NCBI GenBank assembly: GCA_963933605.1
Contig: CAWVVN010000001.1
Coordinates: 29,879-93,878 of the forward strand
Source of the DNA: an uncultured Verrucomicrobiales bacterium
GTDB lineage: Bacteria; Verrucomicrobiota; Verrucomicrobiia; Verrucomicrobiales; Akkermansiaceae
DNA: 64,000 nt
Reading direction: 5' to 3'
In this document: one piece after another, positions 358 through 50,251 of the stretch
How the letters are laid out: every line of letters starts with the position of its first letter
Numbering within the stretch: position 1 is the stretch's first letter
Program-made: the position numbers and the translations under genes
Notes under the pieces: model-generated
What the model was told of the DNA's origin: nothing
The model's input: only the letters and a program-made list of their open reading frames with translations
The model's database searches: none

Positions 358-3300
358 TTATTTTTTATGGCGTGCTATTTCCTGCCACAAACAGAAGAAT
401 GTCGGCACGACAAACATACTGAGCAGCACAACGAGTGAACCGCCAAAGATGGGAACCGCCATCGGCCCCATGATGTCAGCCCCGCGTCCTGTCGAGGTCA
501 GCACTGGCAGTAGTGCCAAGATGGTCGTGGCAGAAGTCATCAGGCATGGTCGGCAGCGGCGTTTGCCAGCGAGAATGGTAGTGGCCCTGATTTGTCCGAT
601 GGTCTGAGGAAGGTCTTTTTTGAAGCGCTGGCGCAGATAGGTGGAGATGACCACGCCGTCGTCGGTGGCGATGCCAAACAGGGCAATGAAGCCGACCCAT
701 ACCGCGGTGGAAAGGTTGATCGGGTGAATCTGGAAAATCGAGCGCAGGTTGTGACCAAAGACGTCAATGTTCATAAAGCCCGGCTGAGCGTAGAGCCAGA
801 GCAGCAGGAAACCTCCTGAGAAGGCCACGGCGATGCCGCTGAAAATAATGATGGTGTTGATCACAGAGCGGTTTTGCAGATAGAGGATCGAGAAGATGGC
901 GAGTAGGGCGAGCGGCATCATGACCATCATGTTTTGATCAAATTCGAGAGCCGACTGATAGTTGCCGGCGAATTCATAACGAGTGCCTCCGCTGCGTTTG
1001 AGCTTGCCTGCCTTTTCCTGTGCTTCGAGGTAGGCCTGAACATCCTCGACCACATCAACTTCTGCGAATCCCGGGTTAGAGCCAAAGGTGACGTAAGCAG
1101 TCAGGAACGTATCCTCGCTTTTGATGACCTGTGGACCTCGCACATACTCGATGTCGACGAGTTGCCCGAGCGGGACTTGTGCGCCTTCACGGGTGGTGAT
1201 GAGGATTTTTTTAATCGCTTCAATCGAGTCACGGGCTTCACGAGCGTAGCGGACCTGGACGCCGTAGCGTTCCCGTCCTTCGACGGTGGTGGTGACAATT
1301 TCGCCGCCGATTGCGGTTTGGATGGTTTTGTGGATGTCGATGACATTCAGGCCGTAGCGTTTGGCGGCCTCGCGGTCGGGGTGGATTTCGAGGTAGGGTT
1401 TGCCGACGATACGGTCCGCATTGATGCTGTTGATGTCGAGTCCGGGGATATTGCTCTCGCGCATGAGACGCTCAAGTTGAAGGCCGAAGTCCTCGAGGGC
1501 CAACAGGGTGGGGGCTTTGATTTTGATGCCCATGGGAGCGCGCATCCCAGTGCGTAGCATGACGAGGCGGGTTTCGATGGGCTGGAGTTTGGGTGCACCA
1601 GTAACTCCAGGGACTTGGATGACATGGCTTATTTCCTGCCAGATGTCATCGGCACTCTTGATATGCGGACGCCATTGTCTGAAGGGTTTTCCTTTTTTAT
1701 CTGGAACAAGTTTGCCCTTGTTATCGTAGATGTAGTCTCCTTGCTCATCGACTTTGAATGTGAGCACACGCCCTTGGCTATCAGCGCGAAATTCGGAGCG
1801 GTAATTGACGATCGTCTCGATCATGGAAATGGGTGCGGGGTCGAGTGCGGATTCTGCACGGCCAATTTTGCCGACGACCTGATAGACCTCGGGGATGGTG
1901 GCGATGGCGGCATCGAGCGTTCGCAGTGAACCAGCGGCTTCATCGATCGACGCGTGTGGGCTGACCGTGGGCATGACAAGGAACGAACCTTCGTCGAGTG
2001 CTGGACGGAATTCTTTGCCGAGTCCGGGGAATTTCCGATCGATGTCCTGATAGAGCGAGGTGTTTTTGATGCCCTCGGGTAAGCCGGCAGTGAGTTGTCC
2101 AAAGCCAAGCCAAATACACCCTGCCACGGCGAGCATCATCAGGGGTATACTCAGAAAGATGATTTTGTGATCAAGAATCCAGCTTAGGATACGGGTGTAG
2201 GCGAGCTCGGCAAACTTGAACGTGAGTAGCAGGCCGCCGAGAATGATGATGACAAAGACGAAGTTGGTGAAGGTGGCGGAGTCAAGGCCAAGCGGCATCC
2301 AGTGTTTGGCCAACAGCCAGCCAACGATTAGAGCGGTAACGATGTTGATGCTGAGTCCGCCTATTTTTTGCAGGTGAGGGGGTAGTTTTGCATGGTAGGC
2401 ATTGATGAGAGCGAGGGCAGCTAACACCAGAGCTAGAGCGATCGAGAAACCGAATGCGATTCCCGCGCCGATACCCAGAAGTGCGGTGATGAGACCCTTG
2501 CGACTGAGGATTTTAACGGACGCTTGCGAGGCTTTGTTTTTTTCCGAGGCGAGCCATTTCGGAAAGACCCCTAATAGGAGGTGGGCGATCGGCGGGATGA
2601 TGGTCAGGGCGACGATAATGGAGGCGATCAGGGCAAAGGCTATGGTGGAAGCGAGGGGACGATAAAGCCTGCCGGCCTCTCCGGCCATGGTGAAGACAGG
2701 AATGAAGCTAACGATGGTGGTCATCACAGAGGTGGTGACGGCACCAGAGACCTCGGTTACAGCTTCGTAGATAATGGCTGCTGAGCTTGTCTTGGAGCTG
2801 TTTTCCCGAGCTTGCTGCAGGTGTTTAATGATGTTTTCTGTGAGCACGATGCCAACGTCAACCACCGTGCCGATGGCAATAGCGATGCCAGAAAGAGCAA
2901 CGATGTTGGCGTCCACCTTGAATAGCTTCATGGCGATGAAGGTGATCAGCACGGCAAGGGGCAGCATGGCGGAGATCAGGATGCTGCTGCGTAGGTGCAG
3001 GATCATGATGACAACCACGATAATGGTGACCAAGATCTGTTCGAGGAGTGCGGAGTCGAGCGTGTTGAGCGTCTCGGCGATGAGGCCTGAGCGGTCGTAG
3101 AACGGCACGATAGTGACCTTGGAAGTGTTCATCCATTCCGGCCAATGGTCGCGCTCATGGGTGTTGGTCCAGGGTAGCCAGGCGTCTTGCTTGAGGGTGG
3201 TGTCTGCGGCTGCTTCGCTGGCAAATGCTGGGCTGATGTTATGATCAGCAGCAAATTTCTTCACAGCGGCTCGATCTGTTTGTTGCCAATCAATGGTCAC

Positions 3301-45156: not shown

Positions 45157-46011
45157 TTAATCTCGTCCCCAGCCTAATTTTTGACGCAGTGTTGAGTAGA
45201 AATTACGGCCTTCAAGGCGAAGTAGCGGCAAAGCGTGCCCAGCTTGCTCGACTTGAATGCGGTCGCCTTGATTGATCGCCATGACATCACGACCATCTAC
45301 GGTGAGAAACATCGGGCATTCGGCATTCTCAGCTGGGGCAAGTTCAACCAATGAGCTGTGTGAAACGACCAGAGACCGGTTGCTCAGCGAGTGAGGGCAA
45401 ATTGGGGTGATCACAAAAACTTCAGCTTTTGGAGCAATGAGCGGCCCGCCTGCGGAGAGCGAATACGCTGTTGATCCTGTTGTGGTAGCGACAATCAAAC
45501 CATCTGCACGATAGTGGTTGAGTAGCTCGCCGTCTACCCAGGCATCCAGCTCAACAAGGCGTCCGGTTTGACCACGCGCAAGGGTGACTTCATTGAGGGC
45601 TCGAAAGCTCTTCTTCTCACCATTAGCCGATGTAATGGTTGCGAGCAGTTGCATGCGTTTGATGAGAGTGTAGTCTTTTTGCGCCACGGCTTTGGCAAAG
45701 ATATCGAGCTCACTGTCAGTGCATGTTGTGAGGAATCCTAAAGTTCCGACATTAATTCCCGCGACAGGAATGTCAGCTGGTCCGAGCTGATTTGCGGCAT
45801 TGAGCATGGTGCCGTCACCTCCTAATACGGCGACGAGGTCGCAAGTGGCTGCCAGCTCCTTCGGGGGAATGCCTCCAGCCGCATTGATTATTTGGGCAGT
45901 TACGGTTTCAAGCACCGGCGTAAGTTTTTCACGCTCAAGAGATCTACAGAGATTCTTGATGATTTGATCTACCCCTTTTTTATTCGGGTTTGCAAGGATG
46001 CCTACTTTCAC
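45157..46011 (-). CDS. nadK: NAD kinase
   Basis: VLGGDGTML, GINVGTLGFL, ALNEV, ADGLIVATTTGSTAYSLSAGGP and TPICPHSL; GTG start. Confidence 0.95.
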   Translation of the reverse strand: MKVGILANPNKKGVDQIIKNLCRSLEREKLTPVLETVTAQIINAAGGIPPKELAATCDLVAVLGGDGTMLNAANQLGPADIPVAGINVGTLGFLTTCTDSELDIFAKAVAQKDYTLIKRMQLLATITSANGEKKSFRALNEVTLARGQTGRLVELDAWVDGELLNHYRADGLIVATTTGSTAYSLSAGGPLIAPKAEVFVITPICPHSLSNRSLVVSHSSLVELAPAENAECPMFLTVDGRDVMAINQGDRIQVEQAGHALPLLRLEGRNFYSTLRQKLGWGRD

Positions 46012-46120: not shown

Positions 46121-46699
46121 ATGAAACATTGTAGATCTGCTTCTCGACCAACAAATAGGTTTATACATGGAAGGGCGGTTCTTCTGGGCGCAGCTTGTGT
46201 TCTTACAATGTGTTCCTGTAACAAAATGAGCGAGCTGGTGGATCGCATCAAGGATATGGGAGGCCAGGGGAGTAGTCATTCGACCGTGGATGCCATGAAT
46301 CAGAAGGAGGCGCAGGCTTTGATTGCTAATGAATCAAAGCTGGTGATGGTGGAATTTTACACCGATACGTGAGGACCCTGTAAATCTTTTGCTCCCGTGC
46401 TGGAGCAGCTTGCAAAGGTGAACGCCAAAAAAGTTCGTATTGTAAAAGTGAATGCAAACCAAAATCTTGAATGGATGAGGCAAGAAAATATTCGTGGCGT
46501 GCCAACGGTTCAGTTTTATCTCAAAGGAGAGAAAGTGCACCAGTTTTCAGGCTCTTATCCCAAGGATGTTATCCAGCAGCAGATTGACCTGCATGCTGCT
46601 TCCTGGGGAAAGGAGACCGATGAAGACGGCAACCCCATCGTGCCTGCCATTCAGCCAATGCCCAAGGAATGGATGCCTCCCGGAGTGACGCCAGAGTGA
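46121..46699 (+). CDS. Thioredoxin-family lipoprotein with in-frame TGA at the catalytic position (probable selenocysteine, U-G-P-C), 192 aa
   Basis: ORFs 46121-46372 and 46397-46699 are in one frame. Joined they read VMVEFYTDT-TGA-GPCKSFAPVLEQLA...VKVNAN...IRGVPT: a complete thioredoxin fold with cis-Pro. Confidence 0.8.
46385..46418 (+). promoter_or_regulatory. Candidate bacterial SECIS hairpin
   Basis: Upper stem TGCTCC/GGAGCA (46390-46407) closing loop CGTGCT, with G as second loop base. The loop starts 23 nt after the TGA. A lower stem can form between the TTT run and AAAGG. Confidence 0.55.
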
Positions 46700-46829: not shown

Positions 46830-49538
46830 ATGAGCGAGGAAGCAAAAAACTACAAGGACACCCTTAGTCTGCCTGAGACTACCTTCCCCATGCGCGGGGA
46901 TTTGGTAAAAAATGAACCCAAGCGTCTTGAGCGCTGGAATGATCAGGGTCTTTACCAAAGCATTCAGAAACGCCGTAAGGATCAAGGCGCGCCACGCTTT
47001 ATTCTTCATGATGGGCCTCCCTTTGCGAATGGTGATGTGCATATGGGCACAGCCTTGAACAAGGTGCTCAAGGATCTGGTGTTGAAATCCAAGACAATGG
47101 CTGGATTTGAGACGCCTTATATTCCGGGTTGGGATTGTCACGGACTTCCCATTGAGTTCAAGGTGATGCAAGATGCAAGAAATGAGGAGCCAGCCGAGGT
47201 GCGCCGGCGTTGTTCCGAATTTGCCCGTGGCTTCATTGATATTCAGCGAGAGAGCTTTCGCCGCCTAGGAGTATTTGGTGACTGGGAGAATCCTTATTTG
47301 ACACTTGATCCCACCTATGAGGCCGACATCATCAGGACTTTTGGTAAGCTCGTTGAAATGGACGCTGTCTACCAGAGCCGCAAGCCTGTGCTTTGGAGTT
47401 ATGGCGCAGGAACGGCTCTTGCTGAGGCCGAGGTAGAGTATTTAGATAAAAAGAGCATGGCGGTGTACGTTCGCTTTGCTCTTAACGATGCCAGCGGTGA
47501 TCTTGCTGGGGCCTCTATGGTGATATGGACCACGACTCCATGGACTCTTCCCGCTAACCTCGGTATCGCTGTTCACGAGCAGTTCGAGTACGTATGTGGA
47601 ACTTTTGTGCATGAGGATGGGTGCAAGCAGAAGCTCATTGTGGCCAAGGATTTGCTCGATGATTTTGCAGGCAAGACGGGCTTTGTATTGAGTGAAACGC
47701 ATTCTGGCTTCAAGGGAGGTGAGTTGGAGGGAATGCAAGCATCTCATCCATTTCTGCCGCGCTCGGCGAAGATCATTTTGGCGAATTTTGTGACGACGGA
47801 GACAGGAACGGGTGCTGTTCATATCGCCCCGGGTCACGGTGCAGATGACTATGTGGCTGGTCAGCAGAACGACCTCGGCCTGTTGTCCCCAGTGGATGCC
47901 GATGGTAAATTTACAGCTGAATGTGGTCTGGATGAATTGGTAGGACAGCACGTTTTCAAAACCAACAAACGCATTACGGAAATCCTCAAAGAGGGCGGGG
48001 ACTTGCTCGGTAGTGAGCTCTACGAGCACCAATACCCACATTGCTGGCGGTCGAAGACACCGATTATTTTCCGTGCTGTTGAGCAATTCTTTATTTCGCT
48101 CAAAGACATACGAAGCAAAGCCTTGGAGGAAATTGACAAGGTCGAATGGTTGCCTAAATGGGGTCGTAACCGCATTTACGGCACGGTGGAGTCTAGGCCT
48201 GACTGGTGTATTTCACGACAGCGTACCTGGGGTGTGCCCTTGCCAGTGTTTTTTGATAAGGAGGGTGAAGCAATCATCAGCACGGAGCTGATTGCTAAAG
48301 TAGCGGATCTGGTTGAACGTGAAGGAACCAATATCTGGTTCGAGCTTGATGATGCAGAGCTAGCAGCGCGTCTAGGTTTGCCAGAGGGTTGCACCAAATG
48401 CCGCGATACGCTTGATGTCTGGATTGACTCTGGCTCAAGTCATGTTGCGGTTATGGATCGGCATCCGGAGCTTTCTACGCCTGCAGATCTTTATTTGGAG
48501 GCAACAGACCAGCACCGTGGGTGGTTCCAGAGTTCACTCATGCTCAGCATAGCAGCTCGTGGTGCGGCCCCATACAAGGCGGTCATGACCCACGGGTTTG
48601 TTGTTGATACTTCAGGCAAGAAAATATCCAAGTCAGGCAGCAAGCCGATTAATGCAAAGCATTATTACGATCAGTTCGGCTCAGATATCGTGCGCCTGTG
48701 GGCTGCATCGGTTGACTGGCAGACGGAGGTTCCTTTCTCAGACAAACTCTTCAAGCAAGTCACGGACCCGTATCGCCGTTTGCGCAATACCCTGCGTATT
48801 TTGTTGGGTAACATCAATGGCTTTGATGCGAGCACTCAGTCTGTTTCGAAGGAGGAAATGACTCTGCTTGATCGTTGGGTTCTTGAGCGTCTCAACGGAG
48901 TGATTTCAGAGTGCTGCAAGGCCTATGACGCCTATCAGTTCCGCAAGGTGTTCAATGAGATCAATCAATTTTGTGCTCATGAGCTCAGCGCACTCTATAT
49001 TGATATCACCAAAGATAGGATGTATTGTGACGCCCTAGATTCTAAGCGCCGTCTTGCAGCACAGACAGTCATGCACCGTGTGTTTGATGCAGTATGTCGT
49101 TTGATAGCGCCAATTCTCGCATTCACAGCGGATGAAGCTTGGGAACATGCGGGTAATGAAGGCAGCATTCATGAGCAGGATTTCCCCGTAGTAGACCCAG
49201 ATTTTCAATCTGGTGAAGCGGTAGCTCAGATTGATGTATTGTTGGAATTGCGAGCTGTCATTCAGACGGCGATCGAGAAGGAAGTTCAGGCTAAAGCGTT
49301 CAACAAAAATAATGAGGCGGATGTCACGGTGACCCTTCCCGAAAATCACCCTAGTCGAGAGCTTTTGACGAACAGAGATTTTGTCACCGAGTTTTTCATA
49401 CTGGCTGATCTCCAGCTAGAGCTTGGAACTGAAATCACAGCTAGGGCTAAGGCCACGGAGCACTCCATGTGTCCACGATGCCGTAGGTATGAGCCGCTTG
49501 TCACTGAGCTCTGTAGCCGATGCAGTGAGGTTGTCTAA
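46830..49538 (+). CDS. ileS: Isoleucine--tRNA ligase (IleRS1 type)
   Basis: HDGPPFANG, GWDCHGLP, WTTTPWTLPAN, GTGAVHIAPGHG, DWCISRQR, YLEATDQHRGWFQS and C-terminal CPRC...C..C. Confidence 0.97.
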   Translation: MSEEAKNYKDTLSLPETTFPMRGDLVKNEPKRLERWNDQGLYQSIQKRRKDQGAPRFILHDGPPFANGDVHMGTALNKVLKDLVLKSKTMAGFETPYIPGWDCHGLPIEFKVMQDARNEEPAEVRRRCSEFARGFIDIQRESFRRLGVFGDWENPYLTLDPTYEADIIRTFGKLVEMDAVYQSRKPVLWSYGAGTALAEAEVEYLDKKSMAVYVRFALNDASGDLAGASMVIWTTTPWTLPANLGIAVHEQFEYVCGTFVHEDGCKQKLIVAKDLLDDFAGKTGFVLSETHSGFKGGELEGMQASHPFLPRSAKIILANFVTTETGTGAVHIAPGHGADDYVAGQQNDLGLLSPVDADGKFTAECGLDELVGQHVFKTNKRITEILKEGGDLLGSELYEHQYPHCWRSKTPIIFRAVEQFFISLKDIRSKALEEIDKVEWLPKWGRNRIYGTVESRPDWCISRQRTWGVPLPVFFDKEGEAIISTELIAKVADLVEREGTNIWFELDDAELAARLGLPEGCTKCRDTLDVWIDSGSSHVAVMDRHPELSTPADLYLEATDQHRGWFQSSLMLSIAARGAAPYKAVMTHGFVVDTSGKKISKSGSKPINAKHYYDQFGSDIVRLWAASVDWQTEVPFSDKLFKQVTDPYRRLRNTLRILLGNINGFDASTQSVSKEEMTLLDRWVLERLNGVISECCKAYDAYQFRKVFNEINQFCAHELSALYIDITKDRMYCDALDSKRRLAAQTVMHRVFDAVCRLIAPILAFTADEAWEHAGNEGSIHEQDFPVVDPDFQSGEAVAQIDVLLELRAVIQTAIEKEVQAKAFNKNNEADVTVTLPENHPSRELLTNRDFVTEFFILADLQLELGTEITARAKATEHSMCPRCRRYEPLVTELCSRCSEVV

Positions 49539-49600
49539 ATGCGTCAGCCCTATTGATTGATACAGGCCGTCACCATGCCTCATACTAAAAGTAGCATCCG

Positions 49601-50251
49601 ATGAACAAGAATCTATCCAACGACAAATTGGTGAGGCAGCTGCTGTGGATCACCGTTCCGCTCTATATTCTGGATCAGATATCCAAGTGGTGGGTGGTCA
49701 TGAGCTTTAAGGTTCCTTTTGTACTTCATGAGGGAAACAAATATTTTGTCCAAGAGGATACACGCCCTGTGATTGAGGGGTTTTTCAACCTAGTGAGGCG
49801 TCACAATCAAGGAGTGGCATTTGGCATAGGCAATGGCACGGCTTGGGCTCCTGTTGTATTTCTTCTCGCGCTGGTCATCGCGCTTTTTCTGATTATGTTT
49901 TTTTGGAAAAGGGGCGCTTTTGAGGGCCCGTCACGCTGGTCTGCGCCTCTGCTTTTAGCCGGCATTCTCGGCAACTTAACGGATCGCTTGTTTCAAGGTT
50001 TTTGGCTGGAGGCATATTCAGATGCCGGCTTCTGGCAACGCCTTGGACAGGGCTACGTGGTTGATTTTCTTGATTTCAAGCTGCCGCTCTATGATAAAAT
50101 CATGCCCTCGAGTGGCGGCCACTGGCCGGCCTTTAATGTCGCAGACAGTTGTATTTCAGTCGCGGCAACGCTTTTGTTTTTGACAGCCATCATTGAGATT
50201 AAAAAAGAAATGGCTGAGAAAAAAGCGGCCAAGAATAAGCCGGTTCAATAA
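49601..50251 (+). CDS. lspA: Lipoprotein signal peptidase II
   Basis: LDQISK, HNQGVAFG, GILGNLTDR, VVDFLD and WPAFNVADSCI; follows ileS. Confidence 0.93.
   Translation: MNKNLSNDKLVRQLLWITVPLYILDQISKWWVVMSFKVPFVLHEGNKYFVQEDTRPVIEGFFNLVRRHNQGVAFGIGNGTAWAPVVFLLALVIALFLIMFFWKRGAFEGPSRWSAPLLLAGILGNLTDRLFQGFWLEAYSDAGFWQRLGQGYVVDFLDFKLPLYDKIMPSSGGHWPAFNVADSCISVAATLLFLTAIIEIKKEMAEKKAAKNKPVQ

Follow-up and report, generated by a model that had tools for sequence, protein, structure and literature searches.

The window, a stretch of 64,000 nucleotides from an uncultured verrucomicrobial genome, carries a gene (46121..46699, forward strand) that very probably encodes a SECIS-dependent selenoprotein in which the UGA at codon 84 is read as selenocysteine (Sec). 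The locus is part of contig C1 in a 92%-complete assembly of 2.14 Mb that falls, judging by its named relatives, in the genus Oceaniferula (Akkermansiaceae, Verrucomicrobiota). Decoded in this way, a single gene would yield a thioredoxin of 192 residues, attached to the cell envelope by a lipid anchor. The selenoprotein interpretation was originally proposed in a sequence-only reading of the window, and the Sec machinery of the genome, the Sec/Cys pair at codon 84, the coding character of the region downstream, the SECIS element, the lipoprotein signal and the split annotation of the gene in public catalogues all speak in its favor. That selenium is inserted at residue 84 is what we infer from this recoding signature and the accompanying machinery.

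The coding sequence is complete, from an ATG at 46121 to a terminal TGA at 46697-46699. As had been noted from the letters of the DNA, its only internal stop is the TGA at 46370-46372 (forward strand), in the context EFYTDT-U-GPCK; this codon falls exactly on the attacking Cys of a CGPC motif and is followed by 108 further residues before the terminal stop, and every one of these coordinates was confirmed. In the ortholog alignment, residue 84 occupies the attacking position of the motif U-G-P-C (46370-46381). The claim that a thioredoxin fold continues intact across the TGA is borne out by a match to PF00085 spanning residues 59-156 (46295..46588, forward strand; E = 5.9e-24), with a score of 84.5 bits vs a gathering cut-off of 23.5. 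In an AlphaFold2 model based on 23 orthologs the pLDDT exceeds 93 over residues ~56-160, comparison of this model with solved thioredoxins in Foldseek gave a TM score of 0.93 and an rmsd of 1.2 Å, and the sequence-profile matches in the PDB were, all of them, thioredoxins or PDI a-domains. The predicted fold is that of a canonical thioredoxin. The CxxC-type active site is present as U84-G-P-C87, and both the resolving Cys87 and the cis-proline Pro128 (46502..46504, forward strand; in G-V-P-T) are invariant in the ortholog alignments.

Orthologs were sought in 60 related genomes, in six frames and with stops read through. Full-length orthologs were recovered from 28 of the 30 congeneric species, and 24 of these, as well as the genome of the window, have exactly one TGA. 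In 25 Oceaniferula species, that of the window included, the TGA falls on one and the same alignment column and opens the motif U-[G/P]-P-C (37-94% protein identity). It persists where identity to the window protein drops to 37-50%, and in seven species U-P-P-C replaces U-G-P-C. Codon 84 is TGT (Cys, in CGPC) in two congeners, one of them the cultured O. spumae NT6N, in which the gene is annotated at full length, and it encodes Ser in two others (TCA in SAPC and TCT in SEPC). Homologs from outgroup Akkermansiaceae (Luteolibacter-type) share the lipobox, the thioredoxin domain and the C-terminal tail and have WCGPC at the active site, with TGC or TGT for the attacking residue; among the 60 relatives searched, the Sec form is restricted to Oceaniferula. 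The TGA column and its Cys homologs together present the classical signature of a Sec/Cys pair. The suggested comparison of orthologs with TGA or Cys at this codon thus found 25 and two, respectively, and it also found the downstream coding region to be conserved: dN/dS was 0.09-0.14 in the part after the TGA and, where measurable, 0.12-0.17 in the part before it, and the similarity of the two ranges indicates that the second half of the gene is translated and under the same constraint as the first. The invariant residues downstream of the TGA reach into the C-terminal tail.

The sequence-only reading had seen no selA, selB, selC or selD in the window and had proposed a search of the whole genome, which located all four on other contigs. 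The matches to selA (504.8 bits), selB (322 bits) and selD (369.8 bits) are each over the curated cut-off, and the tRNA-Sec gene (selC; 56.4 bits, anticodon TCA) is above the Rfam gathering score. The selD gene carries a TGA of its own, in frame at the classical SCAG-U-ASKL site and followed by a separate hairpin; a SelD with Sec at the canonical site and a full machinery mark the organism as one that already uses Sec. UGA is otherwise an ordinary stop in this genome, where 203 of 972 long ORFs end in it, and the Sec-thioredoxin gene itself terminates with TGA in several orthologs, at a position where others have TAA or TAG. selA is present in all four in-genus species that are without Sec at codon 84, and the replacement in these species is therefore gene-specific. 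An ab initio scan for further genes with an in-frame TGA, based on coding potential on both sides and on a redox motif, gave 118 matches in the genome, which were mostly spurious and did not include SelD. Two outcomes had been named that would speak against a selenoprotein, namely a genome lacking the Sec machinery with close relatives that all carry TGC or TGT, and relaxed selection on the downstream half; what was found instead is that the machinery is present, that the TGA is kept and that selection is equal in the two halves.

The hairpin pointed out downstream of the TGA, TGCTCC-CGTGCT-GGAGCA, with its loop 23 nt after the TGA and a G at loop position 2, is present at 46390-46407, as an inverted repeat with arms at 46390-46395 and 46402-46407 and a loop at 46396-46401. 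Drawn as a bacterial SECIS element, it extends over 46389..46408 (forward strand), with a core stem in which 46391-46395 pair with 46402-46406, two outer pairs and the loop CGUGCU. Published bacterial SECIS criteria (PMC13188914, Fig. 2A) are a loop of 3-9 nt with a G within its first two positions, usually followed by G or U, an upper stem of 4-16 bp, a spacing of 16-37 nt and a minimum free energy of -7.5 kcal/mol or lower. The hairpin of the window lies within each of these limits, with a loop of 6 nt, G-U at loop positions 2-3, a stem of 6-7 bp, a spacing of 23 nt and a dG of -8.8 kcal/mol. Folded as a single sequence, the stretch that follows the UGA did no better than shuffled sequences (z = -0.04), and the case for a SECIS is therefore built on comparative data.

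Across 24 sequences the 7-bp helix is 94.6% paired, compared with 28-54% in controls in which the 3' arm was slid by 1-3 columns. Compensatory changes are seen at two column pairs, 21-38 (C-G, U-A, U-G) and 23-36 (C-G, U-A, U-G), the latter including a change of GCU...GAG to GUU...GAA. Among 21 non-redundant Sec orthologs, three consecutive codons covering the 5' arm and loop of the hairpin have zero synonymous entropy (Ala GCT in 18/18, Pro CCC in 21/21 and Val GTG in 21/21); they are the only three of the 36 four-fold columns of the gene to do so, the other 33 having 0.95-1.99 bits. Of the 25 Sec orthologs, 22 have a hairpin with a dG of -7.5 kcal/mol or below, and the remaining three have a weakened stem (-2.1 to -5.2). 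The SECIS-like character attributed to the hairpin is thereby upheld on three counts, by the published criteria, by conservation with covariation and by the freezing of synonymous sites, and the comparative data on the hairpin and the TGA together lie far beyond what chance would produce. The hairpin is absent from five outgroup Cys forms (dG -1.5 to +6.9), and the four in-genus non-Sec forms comprise two with the exact hairpin (the Cys form L034 and the Ser form L048), one in which the loop G is lost (CACGCU) and one in which the structure is lost, a distribution that fits decay after the loss of Sec. Since the exact hairpin persists in L034 and L048, part of its conservation could be due to recent ancestry or to constraint on the A-P-V-L-E peptide that it encodes; conservation of this peptide cannot account for the frozen third-codon positions. 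Retention of the hairpin in these two forms only suggests that the change ran from Sec to Cys or Ser, and in the gene tree consulted for the direction of change the base of the Oceaniferula clade is an unresolved polytomy and the Ser branches are long.

Two other explanations of the in-frame TGA have to be weighed against these data. UGA is the leakiest of the stop codons, and it might be passed here by near-cognate or suppressor decoding, or under an alternative code, so that Trp, Cys or Gly rather than Sec is inserted. We consider this highly improbable in an organism with a complete Sec machinery and a SelD carrying Sec at the canonical site, the more so given that the UGA aligns exactly to the catalytic Cys of the homologs, that a SECIS-type hairpin and frozen synonymous sites are found at the right distance from it, and that UGA serves as an ordinary stop both genome-wide and at the end of the same gene. 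The other explanation is that the gene is a pseudogene, a product of a recent nonsense mutation or of a sequencing or assembly error, or else that the locus holds two genes, for an 83-aa lipoprotein and for a 100-aa thioredoxin fragment initiated at the GTG at 46397. On many contigs gene callers do in fact predict two products, of 83 and 100 aa, each named "hypothetical protein". The probability of this explanation seems to us close to negligible, as it is already contradicted by comparative data: 25 species whose genomes were assembled independently share the TGA, at up to ~60% protein divergence, purifying selection is equal on both of its sides, and no start codon is conserved after it. The thioredoxin domain, moreover, is complete only across the TGA, and the 100-aa piece would be without the first strands of the fold and without the attacking residue.

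The N terminus of the putative selenoprotein, which reads ...AVLLGAACVLTMCSC-NK, had been likened to a lipoprotein signal. It consists of a basic n-region, a hydrophobic core and the lipobox T-M-C-S-C (46121..46219, forward strand), fits the PROSITE PS51257-type lipoprotein rule and has Cys33 (46217-46219) as the predicted lipidated residue. The likeness holds across the family, as 27 of 29 orthologs comply with the lipobox rule at a conserved site (...SC[DNE]K) and the remaining two are near misses at the same site; lipidation of Cys33 is accordingly a prediction from the signal sequence. Genus-wide, the gene is flanked by the divergently oriented NAD kinase gene nadK (45157..46011, reverse strand) and, downstream, by the isoleucyl-tRNA synthetase gene ileS (46830..49538, forward strand), both recognized with Pfam and in conserved synteny, with the lipoprotein signal peptidase II gene lspA (49601..50251, forward strand; PF01252, E = 1.2e-31) lying two genes downstream. 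Annotation of this neighborhood revealed no redox partner gene near the locus. A scan of the locus against Rfam at E <= 1 gave no match, and a promoter and terminator consensus scan of the gene's strand found nothing beyond the expectation from shuffled sequences.

At its other end the protein has a conserved tail, A-I-Q-P-M-P-K-E-W-M-P-P-G-V-T (46646..46690, forward strand), which AlphaFold2 models at intermediate confidence (pLDDT 74-84). Residues M180, P181, W184, P186, P187 and G188 are invariant, outgroup Cys forms included; the consensus P-M-P-K-x-W-L-P-P-G-V is common to Oceaniferula and these outgroup forms, and the motif occurs in no other real protein of the host genome. At the active site, all Oceaniferula forms have Thr in place of the Trp of canonical WCGPC (TDT-U-GPC). 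The TIGR01068 TrxA equivalog model scores the protein at 81.2 bits, below its cut-off of 96.8, and the WCGPC signature that goes with it is not found; the C-terminal extension and the signal peptide also set the protein apart from canonical TrxA. The same genome has a separate 116-aa open frame on contig C20 (C20:7351-7620), which is taken to be the housekeeping thioredoxin.

Under the mechanism that we propose, SelB carrying Sec-tRNA(Sec) would bind the hairpin, which lies 18-38 nt past the UGA and has the loop C-G-U-G-Y-U, and would bring Sec to the ribosome, competing there with release factor 2. Once made at full length, the pre-protein would be exported, lipidated on Cys33 and cleaved by LspA, so that the mature protein would present its U-G-P-C redox center to the periplasm. 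There, the selenolate of Sec84 would attack substrate disulfides or sulfenic acids, Cys87 would resolve the selenenyl-sulfide formed at Sec84, and the center would be re-reduced by the membrane electron transporter DsbD.

DsbD is encoded in the genome by an ORF that covers its N-terminal and transmembrane domains and runs off its contig. Searches of the 92%-complete genome recovered neither DsbA (PF01323) nor DsbB (PF02600). They did recover a fusion of VKOR to a DsbA-like Thioredoxin_4 domain that has a CxxC of its own, and this fusion would make the oxidative pathway self-contained. Because DsbD is present and a separate VKOR-DsbA-like fusion covers the oxidative pathway, the likeliest function of the Sec-thioredoxin is that of a periplasmic reductase fed by DsbD, the reductive direction being judged from the CGPC-type motif and genome content only. 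Substrates of such a reductase would presumably be disulfides or sulfenic acids, toward which Sec would plausibly be a more reactive nucleophile than Cys. A genuine selenoprotein could also act in the envelope as an oxidant that forms disulfides, or as a peroxidase-like scavenger that detoxifies peroxides by way of a selenenic acid. That no DsbA or DsbB was detected leaves room for such a role, and Sec is typical of peroxide-reactive enzymes; the U-P-P-C of seven species indicates that the redox potential may vary, and the Ser variants (S-x-P-C) retain the resolving Cys alone. We nonetheless regard it as unlikely, given that the VKOR-Thioredoxin_4 fusion is already an oxidase, that a supplier of reductant is present in DsbD and that the domain is nearest to the classical reducing thioredoxins and not to DsbA or Prx. 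A narrower idea, in which the protein would be the DsbA-type oxidase that the genome otherwise lacks, is weakened by the fusion of VKOR to its own DsbA-like domain.

The gene belongs to a known class of selenoproteins, the UxxC Sec-thioredoxins. That UxxC redoxins are a recognized class, as the sequence-only reading had stated, is well documented, the Sec-thioredoxins being an established selenoprotein family that is abundant in marine settings (PMC1088965, PMC2398784, PMC13188914). "Trx" and "Trx-like 1" were among the major marine selenoprotein families in the Sargasso Sea and GOS surveys (PMC1088965, PMC2398784), and the Trx of Treponema denticola is a Sec thioredoxin with UxxC (Kim et al. 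2015, as cited in PMC13188914). The window protein shares with these proteins the classical thioredoxin domain, the substitution of Sec for the N-terminal attacking Cys of CGPC, a bacterial SECIS directly downstream and within the coding region, the existence of Cys homologs and the marine setting. It differs from them in its lipoprotein signal, which would make it envelope-anchored rather than cytoplasmic, in its ~25-residue linker and conserved C-terminal tail, and in the Thr before the active site together with a score below the TIGR01068 cut-off. Members of the DsbA-like, DsbG-like, thiol-disulfide isomerase and TlpA families are typically extracytoplasmic. Sec forms of the first three were predicted in the marine surveys (PMC1088965, PMC2398784), and one of the TlpA family was added by a 2026 review (PMC13188914).

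A working model for the window protein is provided by Etrx1 and Etrx2, two surface thioredoxin-family lipoproteins of Streptococcus pneumoniae (PMC3914529). These are likewise lipid-anchored, extracytoplasmic reductases of the thioredoxin fold; they receive electrons from a membrane transporter of the CcdA/DsbD type and pass them on to repair enzymes, MsrAB among them (PMC3914529). They have Cys and not Sec, come from a Gram-positive host and belong to another thioredoxin subfamily, and their genes are in operons with ccdA and msrAB, whereas the window gene sits between nadK and ileS-lspA. Enzymes of the TlpA/ResA/DsbE type are also membrane-tethered periplasmic reductases of the thioredoxin fold that depend on DsbD or CcdA, and a selenoprotein version of them has been predicted. 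They are part of the Redoxin / AhpC-TSA branch and have UGC as their predicted Sec motif, vs U-G-P-C in the window protein, which matches Redoxin at E = 0.0057 (16.9 vs a cut-off of 26.6) and scores 23.5 bits with the ResA model (cut-off 170) and 20.7 with that of DsbE (cut-off 123); it does not belong to their family, although it may work as they do. Several NCBIfam models describe thioredoxin-like selenoproteins that, like the window protein, have Sec in a UxxC-type redox motif (TIGR02187, NF045694, NF040730 and NF047660), among them the curated models for SaoT (NF040730) and for the HUIPC-motif type (NF047660) that are named in PMC13188914. In the NCBIfam scan of the window protein, no curated "seleno" model reached its own cut-off: PDO_seleno_TRX (TIGR02187) scored 26.5 vs 185 and TsoB (NF045694) 20.5 vs 805, and the SaoT and HUIPC-type models gave no match at E <= 0.001.

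The expectation that standard annotation would split the gene proved correct, as the public catalogues hold its two pieces as separate hypothetical proteins. Exact look-ups returned the 83-aa piece as "hypothetical protein" (e.g. MDC1406528.1) and the 100-aa fragment as NCF11906.1, with the label "thioredoxin-like negative regulator of GroEL" in IMG, and both pieces occur on many marine contigs, Tara included. The present reading would correct a systematic mis-annotation, in that a gene widespread among marine Verrucomicrobia is held as two unrelated hypothetical proteins in NCBI, IMG, ENA and Tara catalogues; as there is no curated model for the subfamily, pipelines will keep splitting it. 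A literature search for selenocysteine and lipobox together found nothing relevant, and the lipoprotein form with this tail seems to be undescribed, as a variation within the known class.

We also put forward, as a tentative proposal that we think somewhat improbable, that the gene founds a distinct subfamily, as the first lipid-anchored seleno-thioredoxin of the periplasm to be described, defined by TDT-U-[GP]PC and the invariant P-M-P-K-x-W-L-P-P-G-V tail. The tail might then be a docking peptide for a dedicated partner or a cap over the selenolate, the protein might be among the very few clients that justify the retention of a full Sec machinery in streamlined 2.1-Mb Oceaniferula genomes, and the TCA (Ser) of L048, with its intact SECIS, might represent a recent exit from Sec. 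What is known of Sec decoding and of the nature of Sec-thioredoxins is left unchanged by this gene, which would place Sec chemistry in the envelope of a marine, aerobic heterotroph. Its 25 Sec, two Cys and two Ser forms, together with the Cys outgroups, constitute a natural series for the study of SECIS constraints and of Sec/Cys exchange.

The residues around the active site of the seleno-lipoprotein, the predicted lipid-anchored thioredoxin encoded at 46121-46699, vary among its Oceaniferula orthologs (L022-L049). In all of these forms, including those with Cys, the canonical tryptophan preceding the active site is replaced by [TS]-D-[TS] (window 46361-46381), and A-D-W-CGPC is kept in the Cys forms of the outgroup, the other Akkermansiaceae. 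Seven species carry U-P-P-C in place of U-G-P-C. Two congeners have neither Sec nor Cys but Ser at the attacking position. The first of these, L048 (genome G001, contig C31), reads S-A-P-C with a TCA codon, a single substitution away from TGA, and has a fully intact SECIS hairpin; the second, L045 (G007, contig C124), reads S-E-P-C with a TCT codon and has lost the hairpin. Both Ser forms sit on long branches in the gene tree and may represent recent inactivations or monothiol variants.

No ortholog was found in two of the 30 congeneric genomes, G010 and G026 (92% and 97% complete, respectively), whose sole match is a thioredoxin-type protein of about 30% identity, presumably the housekeeping thioredoxin; the missing gene may reflect either gene loss or an assembly gap. 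At every Oceaniferula locus examined, the predicted lipoprotein gene adjoins ileS-lspA and hence lies near the gene for lipoprotein signal peptidase, this conserved pair being located directly downstream in the window (46830-50251). We saw nothing in this arrangement that points beyond synteny. Among public records, the protein cluster of the 100-aa C-terminal fragment (P0024) includes one JGI/IMG member of 170 aa, named "thioredoxin 1" and encoded on a 966-bp contig, which may be a gene caller's read-through of the TGA or may come from a contig carrying a stop-free form.

Larger Oceaniferula genomes encode paralogs of about 195-220 aa (L132, G019 contig C2; L133, G003 contig C13; L134, G028 contig C11) that have a thioredoxin-like fold and a hydrophobic N-terminal segment, lack the CxxC motif, and end in a tail related to that of the seleno-lipoprotein, G-P-M-x-x-x-W-[ML]-P-[ED]-G-V-Q. 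Since this tail is common to the seleno-lipoprotein and the CxxC-less paralogs, it defines a small family, some of whose members are redox-inactive. No such paralog occurs in the 2.1-Mb genome to which the window belongs (G000). Neither DsbA nor DsbB was detected in this 92%-complete genome, and its only disulfide-forming system appears to be a fusion protein that joins VKOR to a DsbA-like Thioredoxin_4 domain with the CxxC motif CEAC (L135, positions 691-1929, minus strand; contig C7). The selenophosphate synthetase of the same genome is a selenoprotein in its own right: its selD gene (L001; contig C6, 8899-9825, minus strand) contains an in-frame TGA in the context SCAG-U-ASKL, followed about 30 nt 3' by a GC-rich hairpin.
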